A DNA stretch of 35,122 nt from a virus. Lineage: Duplodnaviria > Heunggongvirae > Uroviricota > Caudoviricetes. The stretch is from the IMG/VR virus record IMGVR_UViG_2713896901_000010; one strand, 5' to 3'. The position numbers and the translations under genes were made by a program. Each line of letters opens with the position of its first letter. Position 1 is the stretch's first letter. Positions 262-30,095 of this stretch are shown piece by piece. The notes under the pieces are model-generated. The model did no database searches. It had not been told where the DNA came from and saw only the letters and a list, made by a program, of their open reading frames with translations.

Positions 262-290
262 TTGAAATTACCAAGTGGAGTGCTTATATT
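262..290 (+). promoter_or_regulatory. sigma70-like promoter TTGAAA-N17-TATATT
   Basis: -35 TTGAAA 262-267, 17-bp spacer, -10 TATATT 285-290; last T of -10 is first T of operator 290-304. Confidence 0.5.
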
Positions 291-304
291 TACCTTTGCG
301 GTAA
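290..304. promoter_or_regulatory. operator dyad TTACC-N5-GGTAA (site A)
   Basis: Perfect 5+5 inverted half-sites ttacc tttgc ggtaa. Confidence 0.6.
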
Positions 305-394
305 ATTTACATCGCACTCCTCTTGTGCCATAGTAATCGGGCACTGGCAAAATCCAGTGTCGGGATTGGTCTCCCGGATTACTAAGTGGCGCAT

Positions 395-417
395 ACCACG
401 CCAGACGTGGTTTTTTT
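395..417 (+). terminator. rho-independent terminator
   Basis: Stem accacg/cgtggt with 5-nt loop followed by T7 run 411-417. Confidence 0.6.
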
Positions 418-575
418 ATGCGTATAGCACAGTCATGCCAGAATTATGGTGGGCTGAATGGGGGTCCGAAAGGACGCCGGTACCACTTAGGCCGGTAAGA
501 CCAACTCCGTTCAGTTCACCACCATCTGATTGGTCTCAGCGGTGGTGATGTAATTCGCTAAGTGGAGACGCCATA

Positions 576-1226
576 ATGAACGCTCAACTCATCCCCGTAT
601 TCAACGGCACTATATCCAACGAAACCGCTCTTCTCGTTAATGCCCGTGATTTACACACTTTCCTCGATGTGGGTAAGCGATTTGCTTCGTGGATTGTCGA
701 ACGAATTGCTGAATATGGTTTCGTTGAAAATCAAGACTTTATGATTATTTCCCAAGTTCGGGAAAAAATAGGCAGAGGCCGTCCTGCAAAAGACTACCAC
801 CTCACCCTCGATACAGCCAAAGAGCTGGCGATGGTCGAGCGTAACGAAAAAGGTCGTCAGGTACGACGCTACTTCATTGAATGCGAGAAACGTTTAAGAC
901 AACAAGAAACAAAAGTGGAGAAGGTCTTGTCAGGCTTCATGCCCGCCATTATGGAGGCGATCAAGCTGGAAGACAAAAAAGAATACAGCGCCCCGCTGAA
1001 GCCCGGCTACCGCAGTCTGATTCATTCTCCGTCTGGTGTTCTCGGCCTGACGGAGAACTCACTGCTGATGAATCTGCTGAACCAGTTACAGGACGACGGG
1101 CACGACGTATCGGGCGCGGCGGCGGAGCTGACAACCATGTTCTGCTACATCGTCGGTGTGAGCAAATGCCTGCGTGATATCCAGACACACGCGGAGTACA
1201 TCAACGACAAGGCAGGATTCTTCTGA
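576..1226 (+). CDS. phage antirepressor, KilAC-type N-terminal domain plus shared C-terminal module
   Basis: ATG 576 with GGAG 9 nt upstream; N-terminal ...DYHLTLDTAKELAMVERNEKGRQVRRYFIECEKR matches the KilA-C/ANT antirepressor signature; last 80 aa identical to the C-terminus of the 2008-2952 product. Confidence 0.8.
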   Translation: MNAQLIPVFNGTISNETALLVNARDLHTFLDVGKRFASWIVERIAEYGFVENQDFMIISQVREKIGRGRPAKDYHLTLDTAKELAMVERNEKGRQVRRYFIECEKRLRQQETKVEKVLSGFMPAIMEAIKLEDKKEYSAPLKPGYRSLIHSPSGVLGLTENSLLMNLLNQLQDDGHDVSGAAAELTTMFCYIVGVSKCLRDIQTHAEYINDKAGFF

Positions 1227-1984: not shown

Positions 1985-2241
1985 CACATCCCTGTGCCGC
2001 CGTTCTGTCAGAAGAACCCTGCCTTGTCGTTGATGTACTCCGCGTGGGTCTGGATATCACGCAGGCACTTGCTCACACCGACGATGTAGCAGAACATGGT
2101 GGTCAGCTCCGCCGCCGCGCCCGATACATCGTGCCCGTCGTCCTGTAACTGGTTAAGCAGATTCATCAGCAGTGAGTTCTCCGTCAGGCCGAGAACACCC
2201 GACGGCGAATGAATCAGACTGCGGTAGCCGGGCTTCAGCGG
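1985..2241. repeat. inverted repeat arm 2 (partner of 994-1248)
   Basis: Reverse complement matches 994-1248 at ~95%. Confidence 0.8.
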
Positions 2242-2952
2242 ATAACCATAACATTTTGTCTGTGTTTTAATTGCCTCACGAAGCGCATCTAACATCTTGA
2301 CTGCCACTTCATCATTCTCTGATGCAGATCCAGCAGGGAGATGCTCCCCTTCAAGCGGAACCCGAGCAACAAGAGACAACGCTTCGGCGAATTGATCTTC
2401 ATCAATTTCTTTGTACGAACAGCCAAAATGAGATTTCAGTGACGACCACATGGTGATCATCGCCTTAGCCTGTTTTTCTTTTGGCAGAGACTGACCGCGA
2501 CTCATGACGAGTTGTTTAATGGCTTCCTGCTGTTCAGTGGTTATTTTACCCGGCAGCGCCTTTTTAGCTTTGCGTGGGTTAACCACATGGCCTTTAGTCC
2601 AGTACTCGTAGAGCACATCGTCACACTCTTCCTGATACTGGATTACCTTGTCGCGGATTTCAGGGCGGACTTTGTTAGGGCTGATGGTTTGCAACCAGCC
2701 AGCAAGTTTGCGAAGTGCCAAACAAATAATCTCACGGCGCTGTTCATCCCCAGGAAGCTGCATTGTGATTTTCACAATGCAGGTTTTAAACCGCTGCTTC
2801 ATTTTCGTAAACTGTGAAGCCCAATCCATACCCATGCCTTCAACGATAGGTTTCATTGGGGTGTACGGTTCTCCGTTGTGATTGACAACATAAAGTTCTG
2901 CGCCGTGGAATGGCACGTTGATAGTAGATACCGCTGTTGCTATACTCGCCAT
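2008..2952 (-). CDS. ant: antirepressor Ant (P22 Ant-like N-terminus plus shared C-terminal module)
   Basis: ATG 2952 with AGGA upstream; N-terminus ...INVPFHGAELYVVNHNGEPYTPMKPIVEGMG resembles P22 Ant ...SYVPFNGQQVRTVLIDGEPWF; sits downstream of arc as in P22 immI. Confidence 0.8.
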   Translation of the reverse strand: MASIATAVSTINVPFHGAELYVVNHNGEPYTPMKPIVEGMGMDWASQFTKMKQRFKTCIVKITMQLPGDEQRREIICLALRKLAGWLQTISPNKVRPEIRDKVIQYQEECDDVLYEYWTKGHVVNPRKAKKALPGKITTEQQEAIKQLVMSRGQSLPKEKQAKAMITMWSSLKSHFGCSYKEIDEDQFAEALSLVARVPLEGEHLPAGSASENDEVAVKMLDALREAIKTQTKCYGYPLKPGYRSLIHSPSGVLGLTENSLLMNLLNQLQDDGHDVSGAAAELTTMFCYIVGVSKCLRDIQTHAEYINDKAGFF

Positions 2953-3024
2953 GTCGTTAATTCCTATACGTAGTTTTACGATACTGAAGCCCTGACGGTC
3001 TGGCCACCGTTGGGCTTCGCTGTT

Positions 3025-19784: not shown

Positions 19785-19861
19785 GTGGCATTAGCTCAGT
19801 TGGACAGAGCAACCGCCTTCTAAGCGGTTGGTCGCAGGTTCGAATCCTGCATGCCACGCCA
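19785..19861 (+). tRNA. tRNA-Arg (anticodon UCU), phage-encoded
   Basis: Manual cloverleaf: acceptor GTGGCAT/ATGCCAC, U8, D-stem GCTC/GAGC with GG in loop, anticodon stem ACCGC/GCGGT, loop CUUCUAA, T-stem GCAGG/CCTGC with TTCGAAT loop, discriminator G, encoded CCA; differs from E. coli argU as I recall it. Confidence 0.9.
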
Positions 19862-29320: not shown

Positions 29321-29383
29321 TCACCCATAAGGTAACAAAAATCAAGGATAGTTACCTATGAGGTGCATTTACCTGTTGGGTAA
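29321..29383. promoter_or_regulatory. OR-like operator cluster (three dyads)
   Basis: 29321-29335 tcacc cataa ggtaa (9/10); 29352-29366 ttacc tatga ggtgc (8/10); 29369-29383 ttacc tgttg ggtaa (10/10). Confidence 0.6.
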
Positions 29384-29438: not shown

Positions 29439-30023
29439 ATGAAAAGTATCCAGGACGTCCGCAGGCAAAATCTCAACGACTTGATCGACCGTGAATTCAA
29501 TGGTGTTCAGACGCGGATGGCAGAAAAACTTGGAACTCAGGCAAATCTGGTAAACCGCTGGGCTCTTGGAAAGAAGGTTATCGGCGACCAGGTTGCGCGA
29601 AAAATTGAAGCTGCCGCCAATAAACCCCGTAACTGGCTTGATATCGATCGCTCGCTTTCTCAGGAAGGTTTTCAGCCTGTCGGCCCAAGCGACATTGGTC
29701 AGCTGGCGGCTCACAACCTGGAACGCTGGATGAGCGAAAGCCGCGACCTTTCAACACAGGGAAAACTTCACCGCGCATCCGGCGTCGCCCAGGTGACAAT
29801 CAGCCGCCTGTTAAACAATGAGGTCAGCGTTTCCATTTCCACCTTGGAGAATGTTGCATCCGCATTCGGGCGTCACGGCTATGAATTACTGATTCACCCG
29901 CACGACCCTGCGACCATCAACTATGACCGCTCGCGCTACGCATTGTTACCCGAAACCGAGAAAGCAAAGATCGAAAGTTACATTGAATTTGTCATCAATC
30001 AGAACGAAAAAAACAAACAATAA
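29439..30023 (+). CDS. CI-like repressor with two HTH motifs and no S24 peptidase domain (194 aa)
   Basis: N-terminal XRE-type HTH (MAEKLGTQANLVNRW) plus second HTH (SGVAQVTISRLLNNEVSVSISTLENVA); no Ser/Lys autoproteolysis domain visible. Confidence 0.7.
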   Translation: MKSIQDVRRQNLNDLIDREFNGVQTRMAEKLGTQANLVNRWALGKKVIGDQVARKIEAAANKPRNWLDIDRSLSQEGFQPVGPSDIGQLAAHNLERWMSESRDLSTQGKLHRASGVAQVTISRLLNNEVSVSISTLENVASAFGRHGYELLIHPHDPATINYDRSRYALLPETEKAKIESYIEFVINQNEKNKQ

Positions 30024-30080: not shown

Positions 30081-30095
30081 TTACCTGGTGGGTAA
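30081..30095. promoter_or_regulatory. operator dyad TTACC-N5-GGTAA (site H1)
   Basis: ttacc tggtg ggtaa. Confidence 0.6.

Follow-up and report, generated by a model that had tools for sequence, protein, structure and literature searches.

Positions 262–417 of the DNA analyzed constitute the control region and the gene of a small RNA of the IsrK family—promoter, operator, and RNA gene—and stand at the head of an operon of the P1-immI type, in which the IsrK comes first, to be followed by a C4 antisense RNA and then by an antirepressor gene (ant). The window, by which term we refer to the whole stretch of 35,122 nucleotides, is a Uetakevirus-type prophage of Escherichia coli: when positions 200–1300 were used as a 1.1-kb query, the closest phage record was phiv142-3, at 92% identity, with phiV10 being related; and close copies were present in roughly 460 of 5,426 complete E. 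coli genomes. The decisive evidence for an RNA gene at this locus is the full-length match of positions 341–417 to the Rfam family isrK (RF01394, model positions 1–77), which match reached 65.5 bits versus a gathering score of 50, with E = 5e-12 in the scan of the whole window. A more permissive Rfam scan also placed the c4-a1b1 motif (RF03163, "a1, b1 targets of C4 antisense RNA") at 328–380, with 38.9 bits, under the gathering score of 46.7. The element is located between an 85-aa ORF, adjoining the tail-fibre gene, and ant; among the records inspected, neither the closest phage records nor the RefSeq records listed for those E. coli genomes have this RNA or its C4 partner annotated, and the minus strand of the element gave no Rfam match and no convincing signal. 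The family being curated and experimentally studied, the IsrK-type element of this phage is already known and constitutes no new kind of system; the useful outcome is a correct annotation and an explicit link of IsrK to the c4-a1b1 motif and to the P1 immI leader. What we established here are the membership in the family, the architecture, the complementarities and how they covary, and the fact that both promoters are conserved.

An initial annotation of this DNA had proposed a non-coding small-RNA gene with an intrinsic terminator, upstream of the antirepressor gene at 576, which identification was borne out by the isrK match and by the AntA/AntB domain of the latter gene's product. The statement that the interval lacked an ATG-initiated frame was likewise correct, there being no ATG in 297–417 and only TTG or GTG codons at 323, 357, 366, 386, and 407; the coding of a small protein in that interval was considered and rejected, since the TTG/GTG-initiated ORFs listed there are only 20–23 aa long. 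The second promoter at 306–334, the C4 RNA at 442–526, and the repeated boxes are features beyond that annotation. All the features are given below, the box labels a and b following the P1 nomenclature.

262–290, plus strand: distal sigma-70-type promoter TTGAAA-N17-TATATT; 10 of 12 consensus positions; predicted +1 at about 297
289–305, no strand: operator, perfect palindrome TTTACC-TTTGC-GGTAAA, covering the end of the −10 and the +1 of the distal promoter and abutting the proximal −35
306–334, plus strand: proximal promoter TTTACA-N17-CATAGT, with TG located one base before the −10 hexamer; 9 of 12 consensus positions; assigned +1 at 341
341–417, plus strand: IsrK-family small RNA (RF01394), 77 nt; hairpin 1 (341–360), hairpin 2 (361–376), linker, and terminator
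364–373, plus strand: box a1, GAUUGGUCUC, within the hairpin 2 loop; core UUGGUCU complementary to C4 a'
382–389, plus strand: box b1, CUAAGUGG, in the linker; complementary to the C4 hairpin loop b'
388–424, plus strand: extended helix GCGCAU (389–394) with AUGCGU (418–423) around the terminator; predicted to form only in the read-through RNA; −14.3 kcal/mol
395–417, plus strand: intrinsic terminator; 6-bp stem ACCACG/CGTGGT (395–411), 5-nt loop, and seven T residues up to 417
442–526, plus strand: C4 antisense RNA (Rfam RF01695); 61.2 bits versus a gathering score of 45
528–537, plus strand: box a2, GAUUGGUCUC, identical to a1 (10-nt direct repeat); predicted target of C4 a'
558–567, plus strand: box b2, CUAAGUGG at 558–565, overlapping the ant Shine–Dalgarno sequence GGAG (564–567)
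576–1226, plus strand: antirepressor gene ant, 216 aa, AntA/AntB domain (Pfam PF08346, E = 8e-28)

Promoters, operator, and transcript lengths

The near-consensus promoter pointed out by the initial annotation at 262–290 is present, and so is the operator at its +1. Considered alone, the match of this distal promoter is no better than chance, in that 5 promoter-like sites were seen in 3 kb versus 4.2 expected; the match gains weight, though, because it is conserved in relatives: a counterpart with at least 9 of the 12 consensus positions, in register with the operator, was present in 20 of the 30 distinct operator-bearing upstream regions versus 3.9% of shuffles, the hexamers being kept and the spacers between them being unrelated. 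The distal promoter is thus probably real and would constitute a second, upstream start.

The promoter common to the whole family is the proximal one. A −10-like hexamer ends exactly 6 nt ahead of the 5' end of IsrK in 99 of 102 distinct upstream regions, and the positions published for Gifsy-1 (C18, G28, G31, A107, C159, C162, and G173) fit the Gifsy-1-type loci only when the +1 is the equivalent of 341, so that homology with the Gifsy-1 IsrK numbering would put the start here at 341. With that +1, the main product should be 77 nt long and not about 115 nt, as the initial annotation had estimated; the distal promoter, with its start at around 297, would yield an additional, longer form of about 121 nt.

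The 121-nt form has a predicted fold of −48.8 kcal/mol (z −5.0), and the same fold was predicted in all 28 distinct relatives. In this fold the leader forms a clamp helix on the b1 region, which helix was predicted in 28 of the 28 relatives, with one covarying pair; no equivalent of the clamp was seen in P1 in the folding comparison. That the leader of the long form might mask box b1 is nevertheless an idea that we retain at a low probability, since the mean unpaired probability of b1 drops only modestly, from 0.44 to 0.27, and since the proximal promoter imposes a constraint of its own on the leader sequence.

Regarding the operator, its core, TTACC-N5-GGTAA, occurs in the window in 12 copies, counting those with up to 1 mismatch, versus 0.67 expected. 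Copies at 29321 and 29369 lie in the interval that separates a cro-like gene from a cI-like HTH gene, and those at 30081 and 30143 lie just downstream of the cI-like gene. From this clustering around the cI-like and cro-like genes, we infer that the operator is the site of the main repressor of the prophage, which repressor would be the cI-like protein.

That protein (194 aa, encoded at 29439–30023) has a clear HTH_3 domain at residues 106–147 along with a weak second HTH-like match, of the YdaS type, at residues 21–61, so that it may hold two DNA-binding modules. An exact copy of the operator core, TTACCCCAAAGGTAA, was also found at 1291–1305, just upstream of a 71-aa hydrophobic ORF (1319–1534) near ant; this ORF, which gave no Pfam match, may be a further repressor-controlled gene beside ant.

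Fold, terminator, and boxes of the IsrK RNA

An exact-pattern scan of viral contigs gave 120 related loci, corresponding to 108 distinct 350-nt regions; the pattern fixed the loop of hairpin 1 and also hairpin 2, so that the sample represents a close subfamily. The 77-nt IsrK has a predicted fold of −27.3 kcal/mol (z −2.6). Folding and covariation in related phages, which the initial annotation had suggested as a check, supported the structure: the pairs of hairpin 1 covary across 89 distinct sequences—one of those pairs being AU in 51, GC in 21, UA in 11, and CG in 4—where the covariation count covers hairpin 1 because the stem of hairpin 2 was fixed by the search pattern.

The terminator had been described as strong and clean, of which attributes the second one stands, with its 6-bp stem and seven T residues, and the first does not, since the hairpin alone reaches −7.2 kcal/mol. 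With a terminator of such modest strength, partial read-through is to be expected. A hairpin plus a T-run of 5–8 residues (6 or 7 in 117) is kept in 118 of the 120 family copies, as checked sequence by sequence; the MAFFT alignment was poor in the terminator region. The pairs of the extended helix that embraces the terminator in the read-through RNA also covary across the family (CG 39/GC 30 at one pair and AU 39/GC 37 at another), and this helix may be a processing site or signal for the C4. In P1, Hartmann and coworkers (1995) reportedly found the C4 to be freed from its precursor by RNase P.

The C4 RNA carries b', CCACUUAG, at 483–490 in a hairpin loop and a', AGACCAA, at 498–504 in a single-stranded junction, which elements are complementary to the b and the a boxes, respectively. 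Between the boxes and the C4, the complementarity involves positions 483–490 and 498–509, with 498–504 facing 530–536 and 483–490 facing 558–565, the latter pairing reaching the Shine–Dalgarno sequence of ant, 8 nt ahead of the ATG at 576. The IsrK gene ends 158 nt before ant, on the same strand. An ORF starting from the AUGG at the beginning of the C4, which ORF is the counterpart of the Gifsy-1 orf45, has 3 codons in the window, its length in the family ranging between 3 and over 55. The genes at the position of ant in the relatives encode ORF6N, Bro-N, Rha, P22_AR_N, or AntA proteins; at the homologous position of the Uetakevirus ZX5, a Bro-N protein lowers lysogeny by about 1000-fold when overexpressed (PMC9782041).

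The boxes and the C4 change together. The related loci yielded 83 distinct element sets containing 50 different b' loops, and we compared the longest perfect pairing of each b' with its own and with foreign boxes: the median was 7 nt for the cognate versus 4 nt for the non-cognate b1, and 8 nt versus 4 nt for b2. The variable triplet of the a boxes was complementary to a' in 81 of the 83 loci for a1 and in 82 of the 83 for a2; six variants of this triplet exist in the C4, complementary to TCT, CGT, AAC, AAG, CAT, and CCT.

The order of isrK followed by C4 was found by Rfam in all 15 of 15 diverse loci, and in 5 of those 15 the segment recognized as isrK also scored above the threshold of the c4-a1b1 model; therefore, the two Rfam families describe one element. 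Rfam places isrK outside the C4 clan. Like the c4-a1b1 motif (Weinberg et al., 2010; PMC2864571), whose description is that of the C4 targets a1 and b1, the present RNA has the same two hairpins, at 328–380; it differs in scoring below the threshold of that model, which model reaches neither box b1 nor the terminator.

Certain individual loci deserve mention. In two of the relatives (L113 and L024) the hairpin-loop box of IsrK mismatches the C4 of the same locus, and these loci may be recombinants; another contig (L039) carries two IsrK–C4 modules that share the loop box and differ in the boxes at the ribosome-binding site. Elsewhere on the contigs, Rfam matched a type II hammerhead ribozyme (L010, 7644–7710), the RT-15 RNA (L021, 5856–6047), and the sok antitoxin RNA (L113, 4793–4948).

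Comparison with Gifsy-1 and P1

The IsrK of Gifsy-1 is known from experiments. The isrK promoter drives both a short RNA and a read-through isrK-orf45-anrP transcript, which transcript is translationally silent, with IsrK in trans raising anrP translation more than 100-fold; the upstream orf45, which runs through the C4 segment, is translationally coupled to the antirepressor gene; and the compensatory mutants G28A/C162U and G31A/C159U demonstrate genetically a pairing of IsrK G28 and G31 with C162 and C159 (Hershko-Shalev et al., 2016; PMC4825925). The same source mentions a stable RNA, STnc1160, downstream of IsrK and compares the system with the seqA and the CI RNA of P4. Lysogens of Gifsy-1 transcribe both IsrK and the C4-like STnc1160 at high levels (bioRxiv 10.1101/787010). 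When we mapped the published numbering, a1 corresponded to the G28/G31 positions, so that the Gifsy-1 pairing of G28/G31 with C162/C159 would be that of a1 with a'. The alternative offered by the initial annotation, of either a small RNA or a read-through checkpoint, was broadly right, the Gifsy-1 IsrK being both.

The element described here resembles that of Gifsy-1 in the full-length match to the model, in being a three-hairpin RNA, and in having a −10 that ends 6 nt before the +1, as well as in possessing a terminator with read-through, predicted for the present phage, into a C4-like RNA—STnc1160 there—and into an antirepressor gene, with a1 at the G28/G31 positions. The two differ in the a box (UCU here, CGU there) and in the b box (CUAAGUGG here, UCACCG there), the matching C4 loops differing as well. 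Moreover, the orf45 counterpart has 3 codons here, whereas in Gifsy-1 the ORF is coupled to the antirepressor gene; the present subfamily adds the second upstream promoter and the repressor operator; and the host element is a Uetakevirus-type E. coli prophage without an antQ upstream, in contrast to the lambdoid Salmonella prophage Gifsy-1. In three Gifsy-1-type loci (L003, L037, and L117), the C4 loop CGGUGAU is complementary to an AUCACCG situated immediately 5' of the anrP Shine–Dalgarno sequence GGAGG; a direct C4 target at anrP, in the manner of P1, is not discussed in the available part of the Gifsy-1 paper (PMC4825925). In the subfamily studied here, the C4 target is directly on the ribosome-binding site of ant, without an orf45, which arrangement suggests that the Gifsy-1 model could be reexamined in terms of C4.

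The immI region of P1 and P7 (Citron and Schuster, 1990; NC_005856) is similar in the order of its elements, in the sequence arrangement of two tandem promoters separated by some 40 bp, the upstream one of which bears an operator (promoters predicted and operator presumed in the present phage), and in the two boxes that are repeated before and after the C4, the second downstream box being at a ribosome-binding site. In the P1 record NC_005856 the order is: the C1 operator Oc4, P2c4 (P51a), P1c4 (P51b) 40 bp further on, a1, b1, c4, a2, b2, icd, and ant. The arrangement of tandem promoters and operator in the sequence matches that of P1, and the present distal promoter occupies the same position as P2c4/P51a. 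The operator, however, lies on the −10 and +1 of the distal promoter here and on its −35 in P1; the box at the ribosome-binding site belongs to ant here and to icd in P1, where ant is reached by coupling; and a clean terminator follows b1 here, whereas in the corresponding P1 hairpin the loop is 12 nt long and the U-run is interrupted, which features make a separate short RNA less obvious in P1. The P1 leader, taken as starting right after the −10 of P1c4, scored 51 bits with c4-a1b1 and 35 bits with isrK.

At 48230–48311 of P1 that leader has the IsrK fold, with AUUUUUGU following its final hairpin, and P1 may also make a short IsrK-like RNA. IsrK and c4 were handled separately in the literature that we searched; the data presented here join IsrK both with the c4-a1b1 motif and with the P1 immI leader, three descriptions that have been kept apart in the literature and in Rfam.

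Proposed mechanism and alternative explanations

We propose that IsrK mimics the target of C4 ahead of both C4 and ant and thereby favors the synthesis of antirepressor, an account that as a whole we consider likely, with our confidence in its details being lower. Transcription would start at around 341 from the proximal promoter, and probably also at around 297 from the distal one, which start the operator would place under the control of the prophage repressor and which would bring extra transcription in the absence of that repressor. Most transcripts would end at 395–417 to give the 77-nt IsrK, and the remainder would read through to give C4 (442–526) and the ant mRNA. C4 would then block ant translation by pairing of b' with b2 on the ant Shine–Dalgarno sequence, helped by the pairing of a' with a2. 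IsrK, whose hairpin loop exposes a1 and whose linker exposes b1, would be a mimic of that target: in the read-through RNA the IsrK part would pair with the C4 segment in cis, as in the predicted fold of 341–600, where both a1 with a' and b1 with b' are paired; and the free IsrK would compete in trans for C4 or for the C4 segment, so that antirepressor synthesis and prophage induction would be favored. IsrK and C4 would thus probably decide when functional antirepressor is made and hence when the prophage is induced, which role matters for annotation.

By analogy, we would expect C4 to repress ant at that gene's own ribosome-binding site and the Gifsy-1 findings to hold in this phage; nevertheless, since the orf45 counterpart has only 3 codons here, the Gifsy-1 mechanism cannot carry over unchanged. 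The cofolding and duplex energies calculated for C4 with IsrK and for C4 with ant gave a gain of about −1 kcal/mol, which value is uninformative because the nearest-neighbour method cannot model loop–loop contacts.

For the a1 and b1 sites of P1, a role in cis alone has long been assumed. If this were also the case here, the element would be a leader in which a1 and b1 hold C4 inactive, or competent for processing, within the precursor until the C4 is cut out, with the short RNA being a by-product that is inactive in trans. The pairings in cis of the predicted 341–600 fold are consistent with this explanation, as are the limitation of the covarying helix around the terminator to the read-through RNA and the P1 record, where a1 and b1 appear as nothing more than putative targets on the c4-icd-ant mRNA. 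An observation in Gifsy-1 is also in its favor: mutations of a1 in cis change the basal expression, in that they raise basal translation (PMC4825925), a result that a pure decoy model does not predict. That 118 of 120 copies keep a terminator separating the boxes from C4, however, suggests selection for a separate short RNA, and in Gifsy-1 an abundant short RNA activates translation in trans more than 100-fold with allele-specific suppression (PMC4825925). We accordingly regard a function exclusively in cis as unlikely.

Our preferred account of a target mimic acting also in trans could be carried one step further. The two boxes would then form a combinatorial address, and the free IsrK would be a diffusible anti-immunity signal that frees only the antirepressors of those prophages having a matching C4. 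At least 6 variants of the hairpin-loop box and at least 50 of the box at the ribosome-binding site occur in the sample, and the reading fits both the box mismatch of L113 and L024 and the modules of L039 with one shared and one differing box. If this were true, cross-talk or sabotage between coresident prophages would be possible; in the present subfamily, a further level of control might then come from the distal promoter under the repressor, through a 121-nt form whose leader is clamped on the b1 region. We consider the extension rather unlikely.

In a further alternative, C4 acting on the nascent a1 and b1 would set the degree of stopping at 395–417, as does the CI RNA of P4 on seqA and seqC, so that the element would be mainly a regulated attenuator. 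The authors of the Gifsy-1 study liken IsrK to the P4 seqA and raise this idea (PMC4825925); C4 and c4-a1b1 belong to one Rfam clan and the weak terminator hairpin leaves room for modulation. Nevertheless, the same source indicates that a constitutively expressed C4-like segment strengthened, instead of weakening, the IsrK-dependent growth arrest (PMC4825925); and the location of b2 directly on the ant Shine–Dalgarno sequence fits a translational control, as in P1. We hold such a control of termination to be quite improbable.

Finally, that a single RNA of some 115–120 nt from the promoter at 262–290 acts like the lambda 6S RNA or the sar RNA of P22 is the least probable of the explanations, and very much so: the distal promoter is probably real and its product has that highly stable fold common to the 28 relatives, but the family-wide promoter and the mapped Gifsy-1 numbering put the +1 at 341, the locus has neither a Q gene nor a late-operon context, and IsrK is transcribed in the sense of ant without overlapping with it, the real sar being at 2954–3021. 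The likenesses that the initial annotation had drawn with those two RNAs were accordingly not upheld. All three are short phage transcripts ending at intrinsic terminators, and sar also controls an antirepressor. The 6S RNA, however, belongs to the Q-dependent late promoter of lambda, and Rfam gave no match to it at this locus; the sar of P22, for its part, is antisense to ant.

The Rfam sar match (RF00262), on the plus strand at 2954–3021, belongs to a second antirepressor module at 2008–3021, whose P22-type ant is encoded on the minus strand at 2008–2952 (Pfam P22_AR_N); a promoter-like site at 2918–2946 would start that sar RNA. Over its last 80 or so amino acids, this P22-type Ant is almost the same as the C-terminal part of the AntA-type Ant encoded at 576–1226, and the ORF at 1–258 resembles the C-terminal domain common to both. 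The prophage also contains a tRNA-Arg gene (anticodon TCT) at 19785–19861.
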